Assembly (NCBI GenBank): GCA_043821645.1
Contig: JBDRCO010000068.1
Span: 96,001 to 160,000, forward strand
Source of the DNA: Pseudomonadota bacterium
GTDB taxonomy: Bacteria > Myxococcota > JACRCW01 > JAFGSX01
Direction of reading: 5' to 3'
Length of the DNA: 64,000 bases
Under the pieces are notes generated by a model. It saw only the letters and a program-made list of their open reading frames with translations. It ran no database searches and had not been told where the DNA came from. Shown piece after piece: positions 8,278-56,697 of this stretch. Both the position numbers and the translations under genes were made by a program. Positions within the stretch are counted from its first letter, which is position 1. Each line of letters opens with the position of its first letter.

Positions 8278-9060
8278 ATGATGCTGATCATGACAGGTCC
8301 AGACGACCCCCGGGACAGGCCCCCCCGCGCCACGGACGAGGGAGCTGCCACCGTCCACGATGCCGGCCCTGGTCGCAGAAAGACCATGACCTTCAATCTG
8401 CCCGCCGCTGCCTCCGCCATGTCGGCGCAGCTCGGCAAGGTGACAGAGGTTCGCATCGTGAATACGGCCTTCGGGCCAGCCAAACTGCAAGAAGCAGCCA
8501 AGGACAAGCGCTTCATGATCATGCGCAAGCTCGATAGTGCCGTGACCATGGTGCCCTACGTTGACCGCGACATGATAGGCGGTGCCTACTGCGTGGCGCA
8601 GGACAGGGCCATGACCATGGGGCCTGGCGTGATGCGCTACCCAGTGCTCGATGTGATCCCGGCGATCTTTCTCGATCTGCAAAGCCGCACCCTGATCACC
8701 AGCCAGCTCCAGGCGGCTGGCCTGACCCTGCGTTTCCCCGAGGAGGTCGATCTGACCGTCAGCGTCAGGGACGACCTCATGCGCAGCACCCTGGTGTGGT
8801 GCAACCCGGCGGCCTCTGTCTTCACCCTCGAGGGCTTTGTCCACAACCTGTTGTCCGTGCGCGCGAGCCCGCAATTCGAACGCGTCTATCTGATCGAGAT
8901 GCACGACGGCGCGCGCTATATCATGGCCCTTGAGCGCAGCATCGAGAGCGTCATCGAGCTGCATCCGTACTTCCAGCACCTCGACCAGCAGGCCGCGGTT
9001 CGACTGCGCTACCGCGACAGCGACAACACCTGGCTCGCCCCCATGCGCTCTGGAGTCTGA
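8278..9060 (+). CDS. Hypothetical protein
   Basis: 260-aa ORF with coding-like GC3 bias and a GAGG RBS; no recognised motif. Confidence 0.7.
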   Translation: MMLIMTGPDDPRDRPPRATDEGAATVHDAGPGRRKTMTFNLPAAASAMSAQLGKVTEVRIVNTAFGPAKLQEAAKDKRFMIMRKLDSAVTMVPYVDRDMIGGAYCVAQDRAMTMGPGVMRYPVLDVIPAIFLDLQSRTLITSQLQAAGLTLRFPEEVDLTVSVRDDLMRSTLVWCNPAASVFTLEGFVHNLLSVRASPQFERVYLIEMHDGARYIMALERSIESVIELHPYFQHLDQQAAVRLRYRDSDNTWLAPMRSGV

Positions 9061-9090
9061 GCCGGCACCCGCCACGATCTCTCCGCCTGC

Positions 9091-11418
9091 TCAAGCAACG
9101 TCCGGGTCCGCCGACGTGTTCTCCGATTCTCGCCGTCCCGGCGGGAACAGCGTCAGCAGGGCCGGCAGCACCAGCAGATCCGCGACCAGGGCGGTGGCCA
9201 GGGTCACCAGGGTGAGCAGACCGAACATCCGCGTGGGCACGAAGGATGAGGTCATCAGCACCAGCATGCCGCTGCCCAGCACCAGGGTCGTCAGGACCAC
9301 CGCGCGACCGCTGCCCAGCAGGGCGCGCTCGATGATCTCGCGGTTGTCCCCAGGGGCAATGGCTTCCTCGCGGTAGCGCGCCAGGATGTGCACGGTGTCG
9401 TCGACCGCCAGCCCCAGCGAGACCGAAAAGATCACCACGTTGCCAAAGTCCAGGTCGGCGCCGATGAGGCCCATGAAGCCCGAGGTCAGGATCAGGGGCA
9501 GGGCATTGGGGATCACCGACAGCAGGGCCAGCCGCAGCGACCGAAACGCGACGAGCAGGCACAGGAAGATGGCGCCGCCCGCCAGGCACAGGCTCAAGAA
9601 CAGGTCGCGGATCACGATCATGGTGTGGCGCGACACGCTCTCGGCGTCGCCGGTGACGCGCACGATCAGATCCGGACGGCCTGCCATCACCTCGGTGCCG
9701 ATCTGCTCGATGGCCTGCGCCAGCTGCAGCGATTGCCGGCCGCCGATGTCCTGCAAGCGCAGGGTCGTGCGCAGCAGGTGCCCGTCCTCGCCGACCAGGC
9801 CGTGCAGGGGCAGGGGGCGGCCCGACAGCTCGGTCAGCAGCCAGGTCTGGGCCAGGGCCTCGCGCGACGACGGCAGGCGTTCGACCTCGGATCCGCTGAC
9901 GGCCTGGTGCAGGGCGGACAGGATGTCGACGACGCCAAAGGCCGAGTTGACGCCGGGCAGCGTCCGCACCCGCGCCTGCAGGGTGTCCAGCCGACGCAGC
10001 AGATCCGCGTCGAGCAGGGCCTGGCCCTCGCGCGCCTCCAGCACCACGTCCATCCCCAGCACGCCGCCGAGCTGGCGCTCGACCCGCTCCAGCAACTGGC
10101 GGCTGTCGTCGTGTTCCGGGAAGTAGTCGATCAGGTGGATGTCGGCGTGCACCCGCGCATAGCCCAGCGCGGCCGAGCCTGCACCCAGCAACACCACGCC
10201 CAGCAGCACGGCCCGGGGCCAGCGCATGCCCACCCAACCGACGCGCAGGGCCAGGTTCGCCAGCCCTGGCGACGGGGCGACGGCGCCCTTGCCCAGGGGC
10301 AGCAGCGCCAGCAGGGCCGGCAGCAGGGTGAGGATGACCACGAAGGCGAGCACGATGGCCAGGCTGGCCACCAGGCCGAAGCGCCGGATCACCGGGGTCT
10401 GCATGGTGGTCAGGGAGGCAAAACCCGCCGCCGTGGTCAGGCTGGTCAGCAGGCAGGCCAGGGCCAGGTGACGAACCGTCACGGCCAGGGCCTGGGCGGG
10501 CGGCTTGCCCATCGCCAGCTCGTCGCCATGGCGGGCCACCAGGTGTAGAGCGTCGCTGAAAGCGATGATCAGGATCAGCACCGGCAGCATCTGGTTGACG
10601 ATGTCCACCGGTGTGCCCGTGGCCACTCCGGCGGCCACGCCGATCAGGGTGGCCACGACCACCGCGATCATGGGTGGCACCGCTCGCCGCAGACTGCGCA
10701 GCACCAGCAACAGGGCCAGGGCCACCACCAGCGCGGTCACCGGCGTGTAGCGCATCTGGTCGGCGATGAGCGTGCGCACGATGTTGACGCGCACGAAGGG
10801 CACGCCGGCCAGGCCAAGCCGCAGCCCGGGCGGCGCTGCATGGTCGCGCAGCCAGGCCTCTATCTCCTCGACCACGGCTGTGAGTTCTTCGACCCGGCGA
10901 TGGCTGTCCGCGACCGCCAGGATGAGCACATTCATGCGGCCGTCCGCCGACACCAGACGGCCCTGCAACAAGGGGTGCGCGCGCAGGGCAGCCCCATCCA
11001 GCTGCCGACCCTCGATCAGCTCCAGGCTGTCGTCCCGGGACACGGGCAGCAGCGCGCTATCCGCGCTCACCACCTCCAGCGCGAAGGGCCGCCCGCGCAG
11101 CTCGCTGGCCAGGCGTTCCAGGTGGCTCCGCGCGGCCGGGGACACAGCCCCGTCGGGCTCGGCGTGCTCGGCGACCACGAACAGCAGGTTGTCGCCGCGG
11201 CCAAAGGCCTGGATGCTGCGCTGCCAAAAGCGCGTGCGCGGGTCCCCGTCGTCGAGCTCGAACAGGTTCTGGGGTGAAAAATCAAAGCGGGTCTGCAACA
11301 CCTGCCACGAGGCCCAGGCCACGGCCAGGGCCGCGGCGAGCAGGATCTTCAGGCGATGCCGCTGGACCCAGGTCGGTTGCACGAGACTGCTGGTAGAGAA
11401 AGGGCAGGGTGGCGTCAA
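9091..11418 (-). CDS. MMPL/RND-family membrane transporter
   Basis: Two TM blocks, each after a large periplasmic loop; TSLTTAAGFASL and LGLAVDDTVH motifs. Confidence 0.92.
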   Translation of the reverse strand: MTPPCPFSTSSLVQPTWVQRHRLKILLAAALAVAWASWQVLQTRFDFSPQNLFELDDGDPRTRFWQRSIQAFGRGDNLLFVVAEHAEPDGAVSPAARSHLERLASELRGRPFALEVVSADSALLPVSRDDSLELIEGRQLDGAALRAHPLLQGRLVSADGRMNVLILAVADSHRRVEELTAVVEEIEAWLRDHAAPPGLRLGLAGVPFVRVNIVRTLIADQMRYTPVTALVVALALLLVLRSLRRAVPPMIAVVVATLIGVAAGVATGTPVDIVNQMLPVLILIIAFSDALHLVARHGDELAMGKPPAQALAVTVRHLALACLLTSLTTAAGFASLTTMQTPVIRRFGLVASLAIVLAFVVILTLLPALLALLPLGKGAVAPSPGLANLALRVGWVGMRWPRAVLLGVVLLGAGSAALGYARVHADIHLIDYFPEHDDSRQLLERVERQLGGVLGMDVVLEAREGQALLDADLLRRLDTLQARVRTLPGVNSAFGVVDILSALHQAVSGSEVERLPSSREALAQTWLLTELSGRPLPLHGLVGEDGHLLRTTLRLQDIGGRQSLQLAQAIEQIGTEVMAGRPDLIVRVTGDAESVSRHTMIVIRDLFLSLCLAGGAIFLCLLVAFRSLRLALLSVIPNALPLILTSGFMGLIGADLDFGNVVIFSVSLGLAVDDTVHILARYREEAIAPGDNREIIERALLGSGRAVVLTTLVLGSGMLVLMTSSFVPTRMFGLLTLVTLATALVADLLVLPALLTLFPPGRRESENTSADPDVA

Positions 11419-41874: not shown

Positions 41875-44823
41875 TCAAGTCAGCGTCGTAGGACTGGGAG
41901 CACCTCCCAGACCGCTCCCGGTGGCGACCATGACGCGTGGGTCCGCCACGGCCAGCAGAGACAGGGCGTAGCGGCGGACCGTGACGTCGGCGTCTTCGAG
42001 CATGAGCTGACAGCAGCGGACGAACTGTCTGGGCTGCTGGAGCACCGACAGGGCGCGCACCGAGGTCTCTCGGATCACGGGATCCGGATCGCGCAGGCCG
42101 CTTTCGACCTGCGGGACGAAGTCGCGCAGCCCGGTCTCGCCGATGTCGTACAGCGCACACACCCGCAGCCAGGTGTCATCGGACTCCAGGAACGCTCCCA
42201 GCCACTCGGTGCGAGGCCGGCGCGCGATCTCGAAGGCATCCGCTCCGAAGCTGATCTTCTGTTCGGCCGACCCCTCGTCAAGGATGGGGAGGATCAGACG
42301 GCCAATTTCTTTGTCCAGGAGATTATCCAGCAGTTCCGCGGCGTTGGCGCGCACGATCTTGGAAGGAGAATGCAGGTTGCGGAACACCAGGTCGATGGTG
42401 CGCAGGGGATACAGGATGCTCAGGAAGCGGAAGATGCGGTCGAGGTTGCGATCCAGGCGCTCCCGCAGCGCATCGGAGAGCAGGTCCACCCCCGTGGGCA
42501 GGTCCAGCCCGCCGATGTCAGCCAGGGCTGCCATGGTCTGGTAATGGTCGCGAACCTCGTCGAGCAAGAAGGGTTTGACCTGGTGGGCTCCGACGTGGAT
42601 GTCCTGCAGCCGGTCGCGAAGTCGCGCCGCAGCTCGGGCGACCTCCCAGCGCAGGCCGCCGTCGCGTACACCGAGATTGCTCAACAGGATGTCCAGGCTG
42701 GCCCGGGATGCGATGGTCGCGAGAACGCGCGGGACCTGGCGGCGGATGACGATGTCCTCGTCGACGTGGGCCAGGACCTTGCCCAGCACTGGCAAGACCT
42801 CATCCCCGTAGCGCGTCAGCGCCAGCAGCGCGGCCCGGGCCGTGTCGCGCCGTGCCAGCTTGTAGATCAGCACCGGGATGAGTTCCGGGCTGCGCATCTC
42901 CGAGGCGGCGGCGATGGCCGCATTCTGCACGCTGCTGTCGCGATCCTGCATCAGGTCGAGCACCGGCTGGAAGAAGTTGCGCACGCGGATCTCACCCAGC
43001 ACCCAGGCGGCCTGGCGACGGACCAGCGGGCTCGAGTCGCGCAGCATCGCCTTGAACTCGTCGGCGCTGGACAGGATGCCGTCGAGACCTCCGTGGCGCA
43101 TCATGCCCGCCACCGCTGCGGCGCGCACCAGGGGGCTGGGATCCGCCAGGTAGCGGCGAACGGTGGGGATGGCGCGCTCGCCGGTGAGGGCGCAGAAGCT
43201 GCGGATGGCCTGGGCGCGCACATCGTCGTCGGTATCGGTAAAGCGATCGTGTACCAGGTCGAGATAGTGGATGGCCACGGCCTCGCCACCGGACAGCAGA
43301 CGCAACGCGGACTGACGGATCTGGGCTGTGCAGTGGGTCGTCAACTGGGCCACGTCGTGTAGCAGTTCGCCTCCGCGCACCCGGGGCACGAGTTCCAGGG
43401 CGTCCAGTACTTCACGGTCCCGGGAGGACCGCAGCGTCGAGCCCAGGAGCTCGATGGTGCGCTGGTCACTGATCTCGAAATTGGACTCCTCGAAGTTGAG
43501 GCGGCGCTTGCGCAGGTTGGCCATGAGCTGGCGCACGTACTCACGTTTGATGCCGACCACGAGTACGATCCAGGCTGCGATGAAACCCAGGGCCACCATG
43601 AACAGGCGCGACACGGGCATGTGCAGCTGGTTGATGACCACGACCAGCACGCCGCCCGCCAGGCCCATCGCCACCGGCTTGAGGATGCCGTCGATGAGCG
43701 CTTTCGCGCGGCCTCGGATCTCTGATGGCACGGCCGTGTAAAGGACCTGCATGGTCGCGTCATACAGGGAGTAGCGCAGGCTGTTCTCGCTCCCCTTGGC
43801 CAGGGTCGCGGCCCACAGGGCACCGGCGGTACTGAATCCCACCGCCGAGAAGCCAAACAGCGCGATGGGGAGCACCAGCAGGGCCACCACGACGCCGAAG
43901 CGTTCGAGGAGCCGGCGCGTCACGAAGAACTGGATCGCAGCGCCGAGCAAGCCTGTGTACAGGAAGAACTCGGAGAAGAAGGTCGTGAGCTCGTCGCCCC
44001 GGAAGTGGTCGCGGGCGATGGACTTGAACGCGAAGTCGATGAACTGGGTCGAGACGAAGGTGATGGCCGTGATGGCGGCCACGATCTGCAGGTGCTTGGA
44101 CTTGAACACCGTGCGCACGTCGTCGAGCATGCCGCCCACGGCGTGAATGGTGGTGGTGGTGCGGCGGGTGGTCAGGGCATCGACGATGCGGTCCCGCTGC
44201 TCGCGGCCAAGGAGCACCACGCAGATGATGCAGATGGCCAGCATTCCTGCCTGCAGCAGGATCAGGTTCTCGGTCCCGATGAGGGGCACCAGTCCGCGGA
44301 CGCCGCCGCCACACAGAGGATTGGCGAGCACACCGACCAGCACAATGAAGGGGAAGATGCGCTTGGCCTCGCGCGACGAGAACACGTCGGAGGCGAAGGT
44401 CCAGAACTGGATCATCAGAAAGGCGCCCAGCACCTCGATCCAGTTGTAGAAGACAAAATAGAACCAGCCGTAGCCCAGGCCTGCCAGCACCCGGGAGATC
44501 AGCAGGGACGAGAAGAGGATGCCCAGCACCACCAGGATCAAACGGTCCCGGCGGTAGCGATCGGCGATGCGGGTGTAGAAGAAGGCGGGCAGGGCGACCG
44601 CCGCGGCGACGGTCACGTAGTTGTAGGCGAGCAGCGACTTGTCGAAGCGCGACAGGAAAAGGGAGTCCCGGGTGATGCGCCCCATGATGAAGGCGCTGAC
44701 CGCAGCGAGCAAGTACAGCGCCATGAGCAAGGCACGGCGCTTCTCGACCGGCCGCACCTTGAACAGAGACCACAGTAACTTGTCGATGGTCGCGACGGGC
44801 ATTCCCACCCACCGTCCGCGCAT
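41875..44823 (-). CDS. NTT/Npt1-like MFS nucleotide transporter fused to HEAT repeats
   Basis: RDSLFL, QFWTFASDVFSSREAKRIF, RGRAKALID; about 12 TMs, then HEAT repeats (LADPSPLVRAAA). Confidence 0.88.
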   Translation of the reverse strand: MRGRWVGMPVATIDKLLWSLFKVRPVEKRRALLMALYLLAAVSAFIMGRITRDSLFLSRFDKSLLAYNYVTVAAAVALPAFFYTRIADRYRRDRLILVVLGILFSSLLISRVLAGLGYGWFYFVFYNWIEVLGAFLMIQFWTFASDVFSSREAKRIFPFIVLVGVLANPLCGGGVRGLVPLIGTENLILLQAGMLAICIICVVLLGREQRDRIVDALTTRRTTTTIHAVGGMLDDVRTVFKSKHLQIVAAITAITFVSTQFIDFAFKSIARDHFRGDELTTFFSEFFLYTGLLGAAIQFFVTRRLLERFGVVVALLVLPIALFGFSAVGFSTAGALWAATLAKGSENSLRYSLYDATMQVLYTAVPSEIRGRAKALIDGILKPVAMGLAGGVLVVVINQLHMPVSRLFMVALGFIAAWIVLVVGIKREYVRQLMANLRKRRLNFEESNFEISDQRTIELLGSTLRSSRDREVLDALELVPRVRGGELLHDVAQLTTHCTAQIRQSALRLLSGGEAVAIHYLDLVHDRFTDTDDDVRAQAIRSFCALTGERAIPTVRRYLADPSPLVRAAAVAGMMRHGGLDGILSSADEFKAMLRDSSPLVRRQAAWVLGEIRVRNFFQPVLDLMQDRDSSVQNAAIAAASEMRSPELIPVLIYKLARRDTARAALLALTRYGDEVLPVLGKVLAHVDEDIVIRRQVPRVLATIASRASLDILLSNLGVRDGGLRWEVARAAARLRDRLQDIHVGAHQVKPFLLDEVRDHYQTMAALADIGGLDLPTGVDLLSDALRERLDRNLDRIFRFLSILYPLRTIDLVFRNLHSPSKIVRANAAELLDNLLDKEIGRLILPILDEGSAEQKISFGADAFEIARRPRTEWLGAFLESDDTWLRVCALYDIGETGLRDFVPQVESGLRDPDPVIRETSVRALSVLQQPRQFVRCCQLMLEDADVTVRRYALSLLAVADPRVMVATGSGLGGAPSPTTLT

Positions 44824-48518: not shown

Positions 48519-49619
48519 ATGCAAGGCAAGAAGGTTCTGCTGGTGTCCGGAATGGCGCTGTGGCTGGCTGCCACGTCCTGCATCCTGCTGGTGGTCGACG
48601 ACGAGCATTCGCGCACCCGTGAGTATGCTTACACCTGCCTGGGGGCCACCTGCAGGACCTGCGTGCGCGACGCCGACTGCGGTGGGCTCGAGCTCTGTCT
48701 CTCCAATGGCTGCGAGCCTGGCAATGGCGATGTGGACAGAGACGGTCTCTCCAATGGCGACGAACGGCGCTGCGGTACCGACCCCGAGAACGGTGACAGT
48801 GATGGGGATGGCATCGCGGATGGCGACGAGGACATGGACGGTGACGGCCTCAGCAACGCGAGCGAAGTGGCCGCGGGAAGCAACCCCCAGGAGCTGGACA
48901 GTGACGGCGATGGTACACCGGATGGCGACGAGGACAGCGACGGCGATGGCCTGTGCGATCAGGTCGAGCAGGAGCTCGGCTCGGATGCCACACAGCAGGA
49001 CAGCGACCGCGACGGCGTGCTGGATGGTGACGAGGACGCCGACGGCGACGGCTTTGGCAATCTCGATGAGCTTTCCCAGGGCACGGATCCCATGAATCCC
49101 GAGGATCACCCCGCAGACCTGAGCGATCCCACCGGGGACGCGGACCTGGACGGCCTGGCCAATGGTGAGGAACTGAGTTGCGGCACCGACCCGCTCGACG
49201 GGGACAGCGACGGCGATGGTATCCTCGATGGCCAGGACGACCAGGATGACGATGGCCTGGCCAATGCTGACGAGGCGGCCCATGGCTGCGCGTGCCAGGA
49301 CGCGGACAGTGATGGCGACGGGCGAGGGGATGGCGAGGAGGTGGCTGCAGGCAGCGACCCGACTGTCGCCGACGCGACCGCAGGCGCCGATGCGGGAACC
49401 GAGGACGCGGCACGCAGCACCGGGTCCGACGACGATCTTGGCGCGATCCCGGGTGAGACCTGCGCCACCGACGAGAACTGCGCACCGCCCGTGAATCACC
49501 AGCTGCAGTGCGAGCTGGATGGCTGCTGCTGTCGTGGGGGCGGTGCTTTCGGCTCCGGCTCTGCAGCGCTGGCTCTCGGCCTCGGACTGCTGGTGACGCT
49601 GCGCCGTCGTCGGGGTTGA
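48519..49619 (+). CDS. Acidic Ca-binding repeat (thrombospondin type-3-like) surface protein with MYXO-CTERM-like tail
   Basis: Repeats of DxDGDGLxNxxE...GTDP; lipobox-like ATSC; CCC-hydrophobic-RRRRG tail. Confidence 0.85.
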   Translation: MQGKKVLLVSGMALWLAATSCILLVVDDEHSRTREYAYTCLGATCRTCVRDADCGGLELCLSNGCEPGNGDVDRDGLSNGDERRCGTDPENGDSDGDGIADGDEDMDGDGLSNASEVAAGSNPQELDSDGDGTPDGDEDSDGDGLCDQVEQELGSDATQQDSDRDGVLDGDEDADGDGFGNLDELSQGTDPMNPEDHPADLSDPTGDADLDGLANGEELSCGTDPLDGDSDGDGILDGQDDQDDDGLANADEAAHGCACQDADSDGDGRGDGEEVAAGSDPTVADATAGADAGTEDAARSTGSDDDLGAIPGETCATDENCAPPVNHQLQCELDGCCCRGGGAFGSGSAALALGLGLLVTLRRRRG

Positions 49620-49864
49620 GCACTGGACCGACCTGTCCCTGGCCCTGCCGGACGGCCCCCGCTGCCCGAAGCCATTCCGCGCCGTCCGTCACGAAAACGC
49701 TCCATTGCCAATAACGCAACGCATCCAGAGGTGGCCTCCACCGCATGGCGGGCGTAAACTGGCGCGCATTCTTGCGCACGGATCGTGTGGTCGGGCCCTA
49801 GTCCGCTGGCTTTCTCCGCCAGGCCCCTGCAGTGGTGAATCCTGTGCGCGTTCCGAGGTTGTCC

Positions 49865-52800
49865 ATGTCCTGGGTGCTCAAGCTTCTGCCTTTTCTGCGC
49901 TGGTTCAAGGGGTACAGCGGGTCCACGCTCCGTGCCGACCTGATCGCAGGCATCACCGTGGCCCTGGTGCTGGTGCCGCAGTCCATGGCCTATGCGCAGC
50001 TCGCGGGCATGCCTCCGTACTACGGCCTGTATGCCGCCTTCCTGCCAGGCATCGTGGCCAGCCTGTTCGGGTCGAGCCGTCAACTCGCCACCGGTCCCGT
50101 GGCCGTGGTCTCGCTGATGACCGCGGCGGCCCTCGAACCTCTGGCCAGCGCAGGCAGTGAAGCCTTCGTGGGCTACGCACTGTTTCTCTCGCTGCTGGTG
50201 GGCCTGTTTCAGGTCGCCCTGGGTGTGCTGCGCCTTGGACTGGTGGTCAACTTCCTGTCCCATCCCGTCGTCAATGGATTCACCAACGCAGCAGCGCTGA
50301 TCATCGCCACCTCGCAGCTGTCCAAGCTGTTCGGCGTCTCCGTCGCCAAGGCGCACCTGCACCTGGTGACCGTGGCGCGCGTGCTGGTGGCGGGGGTGCA
50401 GGAGGCACACCTGCCCACCGTGGGCATGGCCGTACTCGCCTTCGCCACGATGATCCTGCTGCGCAAGCTGCAGCCCCGCATCCCCAACGTGCTCGTCGCC
50501 GTCGTGGTGGCCACACTTCTGGCCTGGGCCGTGGGCTTCGAGCAGAAGCAGACCGTGGACCTGAGTCAGATCCAGGCACCCGAGGTCGTGGCGCTGGTTG
50601 ACCGCTACAACGAGGAACAGTCCGTCAAGGAACGCTTCGAGGCGGTGCGGGCTCACGGCCGCAAGGGCTGGGATCCATCGTCGGCCGAGGGCGAGAAGGC
50701 CTGCACCGCTTGTCATGGCGAGCGCGACCCGGCGACCTTCACCGACCAGGCCAAGGGCCCCGTCGACGGTGCCATGGTGAACGCGTTTGCTCTGCATGAG
50801 CTGGCAGGCGTGCTCGAGGCACGCAGCCAGGCGCACCGCCATGGTCTGGGCTCGCTGCGGACGGACCTCACCAGGACCAATCTGGTGCCCGTCCGGGGCG
50901 CCGACGGCAGGCTCGTGTTCGTGGCCCCGGGTCAGGTTCCACCAGGCGTCACCCCGGAAAAGGGTCGCTGGCACCTGCGCGTGAGCACCGGCCCGCTCGA
51001 CACCTCGGCCCTGGTGCTGTCTGGAGGGGGCTCGGTGGTGGGCGCCATTCCCCGGGGCCTGCCGACCCTGCGTGCGCCCTCGATGAACTGGTCCATCCTG
51101 GGCAAGCTCCTGGCGGCCGCCATCATCATCTCGCTGCTTGGCTTCATGGAAGCCATCTCCATCGCCAAGGCCATGGCGGCGCGCACCAGGCAGCACCTCG
51201 ACGCCAACCAGGAACTGGTGGGGCAGGGCCTGGCCAACCTGGTGGGCGCGTTCACCCAGGGCTACCCGGTATCGGGTTCGTTCTCGCGCACCGCGGTCAA
51301 CTACCAGGCCGGTGGACAGACCGGACTGTCCAACGTAGTGGCCGGCGCCATGGTGGGTGTGGTCCTGCTGTTCCTGTCGGGCGCGCTGTACCACCTGCCG
51401 GACGCCGTGCTGGCCGCCATCATCGTCATGGCCGTGGCCGGGCTGATCAACGTCAAGGGTTTCGTCCACGCCTGGCGCACCAGCCGGCTCGACGGTGCGA
51501 TCTCCATCATCACCTTCGGCGTGACCCTGGGCCTGGCTCCGGAACTGGAGTGGGGCATTGCCACCGGCGTGTCCCTGTCGCTCATCGCCTACCTCTATCG
51601 TTCCATGCGACCCGAGGTGGTCGAGCTGGTTCCCGACGAGCAGGGAGTCATGCGCGACGTGCGACGCCACGAGCTCACGCGCTGCAAGCACCTGGCAGTG
51701 GTGGGCTTCGAGGGACCGCTCAACTTCGCCAGCGTCAGCTATCTCGAGGAGACCCTGCTGCACCTGGTGGCGGATTACACGGGGCTCAAGCACCTGGTGA
51801 TCAAGGGCGACGGCATCAGCGAGATCGATGCCTCGGGCGAGGAGACCCTGCGCCACGTGGTCGAGAATCTGCGCACCGCCGGCACCGCCGTCAGTTTCTC
51901 GGGCTGGCCCGAGGGCATCGTCGACGTGCTCCGGCGCTCGGGTCTGCACCAGGAGATCGGCGCTGGCCATTTCTTTCACACCCGGGCCGAGGCTCTGAGC
52001 GCGATCTACGCGGATGTGCACGAGGGCACCGGCGAGACCGACTGTCCGTTCCGACGCGCCATGCCACCGCTCGTCGAGCTGTCCATGCATCCCGACGGCA
52101 CCTTGCGGGATGCCCTTCGTCACAAGCTCCCACGCTGCCGGCACATCGCGGCGCTGCGCTTCGATGCGGACCTGACCTTTGCCAACACCGCATACCTCGA
52201 GGAGGAAACGCGCGCGCGCATCGCCGACCGCAGCAACCTGCGCCACTTGGTCCTGGTCGCCCACGGTGTCGCCAGCATGGATACCTCAGCGGCCAAGCGC
52301 CTGCTGGGCATGATCGAAAAGCTGCATGGCGAGGGCATCGAGGTCTCGCTCAGCGGTCTCAAGGACGAGGTACTCGACATCCTGTCCAGGGACGGCGGGT
52401 TGACCTCTCTTGGCCGCGACCACCTGTATCCCACCCAGGCCGCAGCGATCGCCGGCGTGTACGCCAGAGCCCACGCGGGCTCGTCCGAGGAGGAGTGCCC
52501 CTTCTCGGAGTTCGCGCCGAGGTTGCGCGAGCTGTCCCTGTACTCGGACGGTGCCCTGCGCGAAGCCGACCAGTACCACCTGCGAACCTGCCAGGTCATT
52601 GCCGTGCTGCGCTTTGATGGCTCCCTGCTGCTCGGCAATCCGCGGGCGCTGACGTCGGAGTTTATTGCCTGGGCCAAGACGCGAATCTCCGTCAACACCG
52701 TGCTGTTCACAGCCCAGGCGCTGACCAAGATCGACGACAGCTCGGCCCGCAACCTGCTCGGGCTGGTCGAGGCGGTGCGCGAGGCGGGTTTCCGGGTCGC

Positions 52801-53452
52801 TCTGGTCGGGGTGCCGGACCGCGTGCTCGCCTTCCTGTCCCGCCACGGCATGGCCGACGCGATTGGCCTGGACAACCTCTACCCCGACGAGAGGACCGCG
52901 GTGGCCAGCGTGCACCAGCAGGCCCACAGCCAGTCCAGCGAGGCGGAGTGCCCGCTGCAGCAGCTGCTCCCGCACGTGACCGAACTGGCGCGCCACAGCG
53001 ACGGCTCGCTGCGAGGCTGCGAGCACCATGGCCTGGCCCACTGCCAGCACATCGTCGCCATTCGCTTCGATGGCCTGCTCAACTTCGCCACCATCGGCCT
53101 GCTGGAGCAGGAACTGCGCCGGCGTCTGTCCCAGCGCACGCCGAGTCCGCGGCATGTCCTGATCGCGGGTCACACCCTGGCCAACGTCGACAGCGAGGCA
53201 GCGCAGGATCTTCTCACGCTGATCCAGTCGCTGCGGGGTGAGGGTGTCCGGGTGGCCTTGAGCGGCCTCAGGGACGATGTGCTCGAGGTGCTGGAGCGCG
53301 CGGCAGCGACCTCCGGAGGGCCGCTCCAGGACCTGTTCCCGACCCAGGAAAAGGCGCTCGATGCGCTCCACCCTGAAGCGCACCAGGGGAGCACCGAGCA
53401 GCCGTGCCCGCTGAAGGAAGTGGTCCGGGCCCAGCCGCAGCCCGACGCGTAG
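49865..53452 (+). CDS. SulP/SLC26 anion transporter with CxxCH-bearing insertion and four STAS domains
   Basis: DLIAGITVALVLVPQSMAYA, GSSRQLATGP, NQELVGQG, GSFSRTAVN; CTACH; four STAS repeats; alternative GTG start at 49832. Confidence 0.93.
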   Translation: MSWVLKLLPFLRWFKGYSGSTLRADLIAGITVALVLVPQSMAYAQLAGMPPYYGLYAAFLPGIVASLFGSSRQLATGPVAVVSLMTAAALEPLASAGSEAFVGYALFLSLLVGLFQVALGVLRLGLVVNFLSHPVVNGFTNAAALIIATSQLSKLFGVSVAKAHLHLVTVARVLVAGVQEAHLPTVGMAVLAFATMILLRKLQPRIPNVLVAVVVATLLAWAVGFEQKQTVDLSQIQAPEVVALVDRYNEEQSVKERFEAVRAHGRKGWDPSSAEGEKACTACHGERDPATFTDQAKGPVDGAMVNAFALHELAGVLEARSQAHRHGLGSLRTDLTRTNLVPVRGADGRLVFVAPGQVPPGVTPEKGRWHLRVSTGPLDTSALVLSGGGSVVGAIPRGLPTLRAPSMNWSILGKLLAAAIIISLLGFMEAISIAKAMAARTRQHLDANQELVGQGLANLVGAFTQGYPVSGSFSRTAVNYQAGGQTGLSNVVAGAMVGVVLLFLSGALYHLPDAVLAAIIVMAVAGLINVKGFVHAWRTSRLDGAISIITFGVTLGLAPELEWGIATGVSLSLIAYLYRSMRPEVVELVPDEQGVMRDVRRHELTRCKHLAVVGFEGPLNFASVSYLEETLLHLVADYTGLKHLVIKGDGISEIDASGEETLRHVVENLRTAGTAVSFSGWPEGIVDVLRRSGLHQEIGAGHFFHTRAEALSAIYADVHEGTGETDCPFRRAMPPLVELSMHPDGTLRDALRHKLPRCRHIAALRFDADLTFANTAYLEEETRARIADRSNLRHLVLVAHGVASMDTSAAKRLLGMIEKLHGEGIEVSLSGLKDEVLDILSRDGGLTSLGRDHLYPTQAAAIAGVYARAHAGSSEEECPFSEFAPRLRELSLYSDGALREADQYHLRTCQVIAVLRFDGSLLLGNPRALTSEFIAWAKTRISVNTVLFTAQALTKIDDSSARNLLGLVEAVREAGFRVALVGVPDRVLAFLSRHGMADAIGLDNLYPDERTAVASVHQQAHSQSSEAECPLQQLLPHVTELARHSDGSLRGCEHHGLAHCQHIVAIRFDGLLNFATIGLLEQELRRRLSQRTPSPRHVLIAGHTLANVDSEAAQDLLTLIQSLRGEGVRVALSGLRDDVLEVLERAAATSGGPLQDLFPTQEKALDALHPEAHQGSTEQPCPLKEVVRAQPQPDA

Positions 53453-53476: not shown

Positions 53477-53908
53477 TCACCAGCCGCGGGTGCGCAGGAT
53501 CTCCTCGACTTCTTTCTGAGAGCGCTTCTCGGCCGCGGCGATGCGCTTGCCGCGGGCGAGGCGGATCTTCTCAAGCAGGGTGCCAATGTCGGTGGGCTTC
53601 TCCAGCACGTCCACCGCACCCAGCCGCGTGGCCTCGACCGCCGCCTTGACCGTGGCTTGCCCGGTGAGCAGCATCACCTGCAGATCCGCGCGCAGGGCGA
53701 GCATGGCCTTGAGCGTGTCGATGCCATTCATGCCGGGCATCGCGAAATCCAGCACCACGGCGTCGTAGGTCCTGGCCTCGACCCGGGACACGCCGGTGTG
53801 GCCGTCGTGGGCGGTCTCGACCTCGAGGCCGCGCGAGCGGAGTCGCTCGGCCAGGGCCTCCACGAACTCCACCTCGTCATCAACCAGAAGCACCTTCTCC
53901 GTCGTCAT
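53477..53908 (-). CDS. Single-domain response regulator
   Basis: LLVDDE, LDFAMPGMNG, LTG, KP. Confidence 0.93.
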   Translation of the reverse strand: MTTEKVLLVDDEVEFVEALAERLRSRGLEVETAHDGHTGVSRVEARTYDAVVLDFAMPGMNGIDTLKAMLALRADLQVMLLTGQATVKAAVEATRLGAVDVLEKPTDIGTLLEKIRLARGKRIAAAEKRSQKEVEEILRTRGW

Positions 53909-53919
53909 GGGTCACCTCA

Positions 53920-54597
53920 TCAAGAGACGTGCGCGGTGGCAGTGCCCGCGTGTGCCGGGAGCCAGAATGCGATGCGTGCGTTGTGTTCGGGTGGACAGGC
54001 GCGCAGGGTGCCGCCCAGCGCGTGCAACTGCTGGCGGACGCCGCTCACGCGCTGCTGCGCCGCCTTGGTCAGGGGATCCGGAAAAGCCTGGCCATCCAGC
54101 TCGACCAGCAGGCCTTGATCGACAGGTCGGATCCGCAGGGTCAAGGCCACAGGTGGCGTCTCCAGCCACACCTGCACCGCCGAGAACACCAGCTGGAGCA
54201 GCAGGTAGGGGCAGGTCTCGATCACCACCGGAGAGTCGTGAAAGTCGTGGCTCAGGGTCGAATTGGTCAGCCGCACTGGCCGCTCGAGCAGATCCAGGGC
54301 TCCGCGCAGCAGATCCACCGCGTCGATCACGGCGTGGTTGGCGTCGGTGCTGTGCGCGAAGTGCGAGATGCTGCGCACCAGCCCCTGGCCACGCTGGACC
54401 TGGGCCTGGAGCTTCTGCGCCAGGGCCTGCACGCGCCCGCGCTCGTCGGCAGGAGCCGCGGACAGGTCCTCGATGAGCCCGGCCACCTCGTTGAGGATAT
54501 TGAGGACGTTGATCACCTCGTGGCACTGCGCCGCCACCACCGCGCCAAAGAAGGCCACACCCTCGTCGCAGCGGTGCTGGTCGCCGGCTGTGCTCAC
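53920..54597 (-). CDS. HisKA-containing degenerate histidine kinase or phosphotransfer protein
   Basis: HEVINVLNILNE H-box; no recognisable N, G1 or G2 ATP boxes. Confidence 0.7.
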   Translation of the reverse strand: MSTAGDQHRCDEGVAFFGAVVAAQCHEVINVLNILNEVAGLIEDLSAAPADERGRVQALAQKLQAQVQRGQGLVRSISHFAHSTDANHAVIDAVDLLRGALDLLERPVRLTNSTLSHDFHDSPVVIETCPYLLLQLVFSAVQVWLETPPVALTLRIRPVDQGLLVELDGQAFPDPLTKAAQQRVSGVRQQLHALGGTLRACPPEHNARIAFWLPAHAGTATAHVS

Positions 54598-54966
54598 GCG
54601 TCCGCCTCCTCGCCACTGGCAGCGCGCCGCAAAATGCTGACCAGGTGCTTGATGTCCACCGGCTTTTGCAGGTAGTCGAAGGCACCCAGGCGCAGACCCT
54701 CCTCGCGTGCCTCGGCCGAACCGTGGCCCGACATCATCACCACCTTGAGCTCGGGCTGCAGCTGGCGCAGCGTGCGGATCACGTCCAGCCCGTCGAGTCC
54801 GGGCATGCGCAGATCCAGCACCACCACGTCGAAGCGCGCCCCGGCGGCACGTTCCAGGGCGTCGTGACCGTTGGTCGAGCCCACGGCCTCGATGCCGCGC
54901 AGCTCCAGGCGCTCGGTCACCGCCGACACCAGCTCCTCCTCATCATCCACGAACAACACCCGCAGC

Positions 54967-54974
<8 letters not shown>
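54594..54974 (-). CDS. Single-domain response regulator
   Basis: LFVDDE, LDLRMPGLDG, SGHG, KP. Confidence 0.93.

Positions 54975-56697
<1,723 letters not shown>

Follow-up and report, generated by a model that had tools for sequence, protein, structure and literature searches.

A SulP/SLC26 gene with an enlarged membrane loop

The DNA analysed here is a stretch of 64,000 nucleotides (nt), positions 96,001 to 160,000 of contig JBDRCO010000068.1 in assembly GCA_043821645.1, referred to below as the window. Within it we examined a transporter gene at 49865-53452 whose product carries a CxxCH motif, of the kind used for attachment of heme c, in a large inserted loop. The open reading frame (ORF) extends from 49832 to 53452 on the + strand, and the ATG at 49865, with 'gagg' a few bases 5′ of it, is the likely start, giving a predicted protein of 1195 amino acids (aa). 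The protein is a member of the SulP/SLC26 family (TC 2.A.53; PF00916 and PF01740). Pfam Sulfate_transp (PF00916) matches with an E-value of 3.2e-105 and 352.5 bits against a cut-off of 23.2, in two stretches of which the best covers residues 22-231, while STAS (PF01740) matches in four stretches (E 2.6e-47). The NCBIfam model TIGR00815 (sulP) scores 515.5 bits against a cut-off of 380.45. An earlier reading of the same DNA (the original prediction) had recognized a SulP transmembrane (TM) domain, and PF00916 and TIGR00815, both above cut-off, bear it out. The NCBIfam equivalog models for DauA and BicA stay under cut-off (266.5 versus 614 and 142.8 versus 880, respectively), and neither therefore assigns a substrate. 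The features of the gene, including those from AlphaFold2 (AF2) models, are as follows.

49865..53452, + strand: whole gene, SulP/SLC26 transporter with a predicted periplasmic insertion and four STAS domains (ORF, start context, Pfam, TIGR00815)
49865..50536, + strand: first half of the membrane domain, TM1-TM7, residues 1-224 (Pfam, phmmer versus AtSULTR4;1 and prestin, AF2 helices, loop charges)
50537..51034, + strand: 166-aa insertion in the TM7-TM8 loop, residues 225-390, predicted as a beta-sheet base with an antiparallel helical hairpin (flanking motifs, AF2)
50579..50668, + strand: ascending hairpin helix, residues 239-268 (DSSP of AF2 models)
50669..50809, + strand: tip module, residues 269-315, in which one short helix ends in CxxCH and another carries His311, with a hypervariable loop between them (alignments, length classes)
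50702..50716, + strand: CTACH, putative heme c attachment motif with C280, C283 and the proximal ligand H284 (invariant in 47/47 full-length segments)
50795..50797, + strand: codon of His311, candidate distal (sixth) heme ligand, in the motif LHxx(A/S)G (invariant in 47/47)
50810..50875, + strand: descending hairpin helix, residues 316-337 (AF2 models)
50879..51028, + strand: beta-strand base, residues 339-388, running into GGGxVVGxIPxGLP (AF2, pLDDT 95-97; W369 conserved in 46/47)
51035..51619, + strand: second half of the membrane domain, TM8-TM14, residues 391-585 (Pfam, TIGR00815, phmmer, AF2)
51620..53410, + strand: four tandem STAS units, residues about 586-728, 729-879, 880-1030 and 1031-1182 (Pfam, Cys-Pro positions)

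An AF2 model of residues 1-600, built from a 31-row alignment, is of moderate quality, with a mean predicted local distance difference test score (pLDDT) of 65.5. Its top Foldseek matches are all SLC26 structures, led by AtSULTR4;1 (7lhv; E 1.1e-14, probability 1.00), and TM scores for these matches are 0.4-0.5 (approximately 0.5 for 7lhv). On these models the membrane domain has the 7+7 inverted-repeat, UraA-type fold. The 14 helices were placed from AF2 helices together with homology; simple hydropathy windows alone did not resolve them. Between the two halves lie the 166 aa of the insertion, bounded by LLAWAVG (residues 218-224, nt 50516-50536) and VVGAIPRGLP (residues 391-400, nt 51035-51064), where the original prediction had estimated about 160 aa. 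When the protein is compared with solved structures by phmmer, the alignment falls into two blocks, with a break from 309 to 314 in prestin (7v73) and a gap at approximately residues 297-309 in AtSULTR4;1 (7lhv). The insertion therefore takes the place of the short TM7-TM8 linker.

The side of the membrane on which the insertion lies can be approached from the helix count. In the SLC26 membrane domain, as described in the consulted part of PMC3988826, the 7+7 inverted repeat is divided into a gate domain, with TM5-7, and a core domain from TM8 onwards. With a cytoplasmic N-terminus and seven crossings, the TM7-TM8 linker would be outside. The PxYGLY motif, which the consulted part of PMC5840216 assigns to an outside loop at TMH2, is present as PPYYGLY at residues 50-56, and its position likewise indicates an N-terminus inside and a TM7-TM8 loop outside. 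Lysine and arginine are distributed accordingly, with 7 in the short loops assigned 'in' and 2 in those assigned 'out'. Hydropathy of the insertion peaks at 1.04 in a 19-residue window, leaving no TM-like stretch. From homology and charge count, we infer that the insertion faces the periplasm. A location outside the cytoplasm had been both a claim and a test of the original prediction, and the loop does map to the outward TM7-TM8 junction of the 7+7 fold.

Predicted shape of the insertion

Modelled alone from a 33-row alignment, residues 218-400 reach a mean pLDDT of 83.9. The predicted order is a strand (226-231), a helix of 30 residues (239-268) and a short helix (274-284) ending in CxxCH, followed by a loop, a short helix bearing His311 (307-313), a long helix (316-337) and four strands reaching residue 388. 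Structure prediction, one of the checks proposed with the original prediction, thus gives a helical hairpin on a small beta base with the CxxCH at the hairpin tip. Base and hairpin stems have pLDDT values of 93-98, the tip 58-74. A complex prediction with two copies of the insertion and two hemes scored 0.33 against a mark of 0.42, and is used as evidence neither for nor against heme binding.

Conservation of the CxxCH tip

The sequence KACTACHG occupies residues 278-285 and holds the sole CxxCH of the protein, at nt 50702-50716, in agreement with the original prediction. Relatives pooled from the searches below comprise 55 sequences with the motif, representing 52 distinct segments, 47 of them full-length, and CxxCH is present in all 55 sequences with the longer tip. 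Pairwise identity across the 47 distinct full-length segments averages 34% (range 18-98%). Invariance is confined to five columns, C280, C283, H284, H311 and G315; R287 is found in 39/47. The spacer between H284 and H311, 25-32 residues in the sequences measured, is hypervariable in sequence and length alike. As distal ligands the original prediction had proposed a methionine and several histidines downstream of the motif. This holds for one histidine, the invariant H311, and fails for the others; a methionine between the two ligand positions is present in 12/45 sequences. The likely sixth ligand is hence a candidate His, residue 311, and not Met.

Several searches returned the same association. 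An exhaustive phmmer search of 1.84 billion representatives with the insertion gave 10 proteins at E <= 0.001, of which 9 are SulP-type, all with CxxCH (9/9). The tenth, P0016 (E 4.9e-4), was rejected as spurious, being a repetitive adhesin-like protein without CxxCH. A word-based search gave 5 proteins at E <= 0.001, and a profile search gave 26 matches, 23 with CxxCH and 3 from which the whole tip segment is missing. Among the word-based and profile matches, the longer insertion always comes with CxxCH and with the downstream histidine of [LIV]Hxx[AS]G. Five single-STAS proteins (P0005, P0006, P0037, P0038 and P0040) keep the hairpin and lack the segment that holds CxxCH and the histidine. 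A profile search with the insertion alignment was also run over 401 genomes of the window's phylum, and it found the insertion in 14, the window's own included. These are concentrated in three families besides the window's own (10/18, 2/4 and 1/1 genomes), and two large families have none (0/172 and 0/67). Loci were read from 12 of the 13 other positive genomes (G061 was not included), and CxxCH is present in 12/12. Conservation of CxxCH in insertion-bearing homologs was a further test named in the original prediction, and the motif proved invariant in every relative with the long insertion.

Long and short forms of the hairpin

To place the tip within the SulP subfamily at large, one genome per species was scanned, yielding at least 605 pattern matches, of which 603 were confirmed; the forms were counted among the best 80 loci. 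There are 7 long forms and 73 short forms among these 80. The long-form loci have 181-183 residues between the anchors and carry CxxCH with the His motif in 7/7 cases. In the short forms the insertion is approximately 26 residues shorter, CxxCH is found in 0/73, and there is neither a Cys nor an equivalent of His311. The anchor distance is 151-171 residues in 70 short forms, and the anchors failed in the other 3. Two short forms, L045 and L058, are intermediate in length, with 171 and 169 residues between anchors and no CxxCH. Length changes seem to concentrate at the hairpin tip.

Long forms among the best 80 loci belong to the Acidobacteriota (Sulfomarinibacteraceae, Holophagae, Thermoanaerobaculaceae and two unclassified) and to the Myxococcota (a Chondromyces metagenome-assembled genome and one unclassified). 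One source name in the protein collection additionally points to a long form in Bryobacteraceae. Short forms are mostly from Desulfobacterota, and occur also in Ignavibacteria, Zixibacteria, Nitrospirota and some Proteobacteria. When the insertion of the short-form protein P0006 served as query in a word-based search, P0006 itself was the sole match, which is uninformative on how frequent short forms are. The insertion of approximately 160 aa is itself no novelty, since a Cys-free hairpin is common in a large SulP subfamily, and only the tip module would be specific to heme.

Heme attachment genes

The genome to which the window belongs is 7.07 Mb in 140 contigs and 94.7% complete. It encodes genes of system II (CcsA/ResB-type) for heme attachment, with resB interrupted in the assembly. 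ResB and CcsA adjoin on contig C36, and a second CcsA-like gene is on contig C76; CcmE was not found in this 94.7% complete genome. Elsewhere in the genome there are three matches to the Cytochrome_CBB3 family. In the phylum sample, PF01578 is present in 13/13 of the other insertion-bearing genomes, which is consistent with heme attachment and is not discriminating.

STAS ends and neighboring genes

Behind the membrane domain the STAS units repeat with a period of approximately 151 residues, each opening with a strand of the [R/T]C.H type and closing with an H...E..CP tail; the Cys-Pro pairs start at residues 727, 878, 1029 and 1181. The conserved Cys/His pairs of these units might form a metal or redox site on the cytoplasmic side. 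Relatives with the heme-type tip differ in their C-terminal ends. There is one STAS domain in L022 and in P0019, P0023 and P0028 (746-747 aa), two in L019 and L007, and four in L018, while L021 and L023 have one STAS domain fused to a receiver domain.

Downstream of the transporter lies a cluster of signaling genes on the opposite strand.

53477..53908, − strand: single-domain response regulator, convergent with the transporter gene (Pfam Response_reg, E 1.5e-26)
53920..54597, − strand: 225-aa protein with no Pfam family above cut-off (Pfam scan, tblastn)
54594..54974, − strand: second single-domain response regulator, start MAKLRV (Pfam Response_reg)
54967..56697, − strand: histidine kinase with a dCache-like periplasmic domain, HisKA and HATPase_c (Pfam)

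Six loci of relatives were compared with the window by tblastn. A cluster of histidine kinase (HK), response regulator (RR), a further protein and RR (HK-RR-X-RR) lies beside the transporter in the window and in 3/6 of these loci (G085, G056 and G025). Kinase homologs of 45-51% identity adjoin the transporter gene in these three, and G085 has a response regulator of 64% identity in the same convergent position. For the 225-aa protein, the loci of its relatives also match the dimerization and histidine phosphotransfer (DHp)/catalytic part of the neighboring kinase (HK residues 344-492; tblastn overlap). The contig of the sixth locus, G066, breaks off at the transporter gene. Apart from the kinase cluster and an aldehyde dehydrogenase, the other neighbors in the window, including an upstream gene with bacterial thrombospondin type 3 (TSP3) repeats, had no tblastn match in the six loci, and for this reason the TSP3-repeat gene and the other unmatched neighbors were dropped as candidate partners.

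Some neighboring genes are worth recording in their own right. The aldehyde dehydrogenase (56873-58912, − strand) has a Pfam match over residues 160-620 of a 679-aa frame, leaving approximately 160 N-terminal residues unmatched, and a 33%-identical homolog follows the kinase cluster in G056. Two genes, at 48519-49619 (+ strand) and 60065-61324 (+ strand), encode proteins rich in TSP3 calcium-binding repeats. At 41875-44823 (− strand) is a 982-aa protein in which a membrane part resembling the TLC ATP/ADP transporters and the major facilitator superfamily (MFS) is followed by a long C-terminal HEAT array, an unusual fusion.

A covalent heme c as a possible periplasmic sensor

The reading that we favor, at a probability of roughly 60% for heme and sensor combined, is that the tip carries a covalent bis-His heme c and works as a periplasmic sensor. 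That heme c is bound at all is the firmer part of this, and we regard it as quite probable: heme c would account for the four invariant ligand-type residues, the periplasmic position, the joint absence of these residues in short forms and the hypervariable spacer. We infer the covalent attachment, the bis-His ligation and the steps of sensing and coupling, which may be pictured as follows. The TM7-TM8 loop would have expanded into a stalk, a beta-sheet base bearing an antiparallel hairpin with helices of approximately 22-30 residues. Periplasmic maturation of the CcsBA type would attach one heme covalently to C280 and C283, with H284 and H311 as axial ligands, making it a bis-His, low-spin heme c. 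A change in the oxidation state of the heme, or a small ligand that displaces His311, would send a signal down the hairpin. Since the insertion joins TM7 (gate) to TM8 (core), a change at the heme would be well placed to travel in this way, and the signal may affect how gate and core move against each other to drive transport, as well as the output of the cytoplasmic STAS domains. A signaling output is indicated by the multiple STAS domains, the fusions to a receiver and the phosphorelay encoded alongside. The interpretation offered by the original prediction, an anion transporter or transporter-sensor that senses redox state or gas and is gated by a periplasmic c-heme, is partly supported.

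Several observations weigh against this interpretation. No cytochrome Pfam family is matched in the protein at E <= 0.1. Foldseek found no match to the insertion model at E <= 0.001, the best being GreB (E 0.37) along with weak periplasmic-adaptor hairpins, and VIA-align found only generic helical hairpins with Z <= 8.9, the background level for helical models. The tip is also the least confidently predicted part of the models, and because it is modelled so weakly (pLDDT 58-74) the lack of a cytochrome fold match is weak evidence. With the fold searches unspecific, the insertion as modelled is a mini-module on the apex of a hairpin and not a recognizable class I cytochrome fold. Its assignment to the periplasmic side comes from homology and charge count. 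In the assembly, resB has a single in-frame TAG within a conserved stretch (contig C36, about 8850-10300; L004 1378-2832), so that maturation may be impaired in this organism, or the base call may be wrong. The kinase cluster was not found within 20 kb of the transporter in G002 and G051. Finally, in a FastTree phylogeny of the membrane domain from which the columns of the insertion had been taken out (121 rows, 414 columns), long forms cluster; 2 changes account for the long/short label, at least 1 of them imposed by well-supported branches. The tip thus appears to have been gained once or twice on this tree and then kept, meaning that the many conserved sequences descend from one or two gains and are not independent inventions.

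The possible alternatives differ in what they make of the invariant residues. Without heme, the site could hold a metal ion (Zn, Cu or Fe) or a structural or redox disulfide at the hairpin tip, stabilizing the tip or bridging the protomers of the transporter dimer. There is precedent for such an arrangement: the Rad50 zinc hook, which bridges protomers, has its CxxC where an antiparallel coiled coil turns, and one Zn is bound there by four Cys from two chains with no need of His; Sco proteins have a Cys-Cys-His copper site. In the AF2 model the CxxC is near the apex of an antiparallel helical hairpin, the Rad50 hook (7zqy) is among the VIA-align look-alikes at Z 8.0, and no cytochrome fold or family is matched. 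However, a Z of approximately 8 is at background level for helical models, and neither the invariant H284 directly after the second Cys nor H311 (47/47) has a role in a zinc hook. A metal or disulfide site explains the cysteines and leaves H284, and possibly H311, unexplained. A His adjacent to the second Cys characterizes heme c sites and is poorly suited as the fourth ligand in tetrahedral coordination, and Cys-based metal sites are uncommon on the oxidizing side of a membrane; both points weigh against this explanation, which we judge rather unlikely. The opposite extreme, a chance CxxCH without function in a variable loop, starts from the fact that single CxxCH motifs presumably arise by chance in large proteomes. 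The conservation data contradict it, as the motif is invariant in all 55 long-form sequences amid freely varying surroundings and is lost together with His311 in every short form, and we give it practically no weight.

The remaining alternatives accept heme and place it, or its role, differently. A heme c could serve as an electron-transfer or catalytic center: electrons would move between carriers in the periplasm and either the oxyanion being transported or a partner enzyme, linking transport to the redox chemistry of the substrate. The heme-site evidence for a sensor serves this proposal just as well. In the AF2 model a helix of approximately 30 residues would hold the heme away from the membrane, within reach of soluble carriers, and short-form relatives are abundant in sulfate reducers. 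Yet this would be a lone heme far from the membrane, attached at the sole CxxCH of a protein with no further cofactor motif, and no redox enzyme is conserved beside the gene in the six loci compared. The conserved partners are instead signaling proteins, and some relatives have a fused receiver, which points to regulation; an electron-transfer role consequently seems to us improbable, and a shade more so than the metal site. It is also conceivable that the loop is cytoplasmic, or that the motif is a reversible, non-covalent heme-regulatory motif like that proposed for CKACH of the BK channel. Indeed, the consulted part of PMC12346439 describes an ion channel with a heme-regulatory CxxCH in a linker, and by the consulted part of PMC5840216 a predictor took the insertion of the subfamily for an additional TM helix, which would flip the topology downstream. 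Against this, there are seven membrane helices before the insertion and seven after it, followed by a cytoplasmic STAS region; an extra helix in the insertion would put STAS outside, which counts against a cytoplasmic loop. No part of the insertion is hydrophobic in the manner of a TM helix, AF2 models it as a soluble hairpin (stems with pLDDT > 93), and the charge count of the loops agrees with an N-in topology. A cytoplasmic or reversible site is accordingly very unlikely. A covalent heme c sensor on the periplasmic side remains the explanation that we favor.

Relation to known systems

The canonical SulP/SLC26 proteins with one STAS domain (AtSULTR4;1 7lhv, prestin 7v73, SLC26Dg 5da0, BicA 6ki1, DauA and Rv1739c) share the membrane family, the fold and the C-terminal STAS. 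The conserved Glu of TM8, E429 in FMEAISIAKA, aligns with the Glu of ILESVGIAKAL in AtSULTR4;1. In the canonical proteins only a few residues separate TM7 from TM8 and there is no cofactor, whereas the protein described here has a 166-aa stalk with a CxxCH tip, and four STAS domains. Its closer counterparts are the short-form hairpin SulP proteins of about 710 aa, which are 50-55% identical over the first 600 residues and have the same insertion site, beta base and hairpin stems, many of them with the same C-terminal E..CP tail. Judging by length and taxa, these are probably 'group Ci' of Marietou et al. 2018 (PMC5840216). For that group the consulted part of the paper gives an average of about 710 aa and an insertion estimated at approximately 90 aa, interpreted as an extra TM helix, and the words heme and cytochrome have 0 occurrences in the paper.

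Periplasmic heme c is proposed to serve in sensing in other membrane proteins. GSU0582 and GSU0935 of Geobacter and DcrA of Desulfovibrio have periplasmic heme c sensor domains, PAS/Cache-like and globular, between two TM helices of signaling proteins. The predicted likeness is one covalent periplasmic c-type heme on a membrane signaling protein, as a proposed redox or ligand reporter; unlike in those proteins, the heme site would here be a mini-module borne by a helical hairpin within a transporter of 14 TM helices. Foldseek and VIA-align gave no fold match to the heme c sensor domains of chemoreceptors and kinases, with the tip poorly modelled. The BK potassium channel, in the consulted part of PMC12346439, offers a CxxCH (CKACH) in a membrane transport protein whose ion flux is proposed to depend on heme or redox state. 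That motif lies in the cytoplasm and binds heme reversibly, while here the motif is predicted to face the periplasm and attachment would be covalent. No paper that connects SulP/SLC26 with a c-type heme came up in full-text searches, whose scope excluded subscription journals and supplementary files, and in the literature searched we found no cofactor-bearing extracellular domain of a SulP/SLC26 protein. Source annotations of the relatives read only 'SulP family inorganic anion transporter' or 'STAS domain-containing protein'.

Implications

A wider and more tentative proposal, to which we assign less than even odds, is that the protein is a redox-gated 'transceptor'. Its heme antenna would read the periplasmic pool of electron carriers or a ligand (NO, CO or sulfide), and would control anion flux together with a signal through the STAS/receiver phosphorelay. 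It would then be a secondary transporter and a c-type cytochrome in one, the first of its kind. Its tip would have arisen in one or two events on a stalk that is older and lacks heme, and would have persisted in Acidobacteriota and Myxococcota.

SLC26/SulP proteins are studied from bacteria to the human ear and gut, and their regulation is thought to run via the cytoplasmic STAS domain. If the heme is confirmed, a covalent heme on the outward face would be a new regulatory input for the family. As a chemically defined switch on the linker between gate and core, it would provide a natural system for dissecting the elevator mechanism, and the tip of approximately 45 residues on a helical hairpin would be a new minimal module for binding heme c. 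Pairs of long (heme) and short (heme-free) forms, along with the variants with one, two or four STAS domains and the fusions of STAS with a receiver, would serve as ready-made comparisons.

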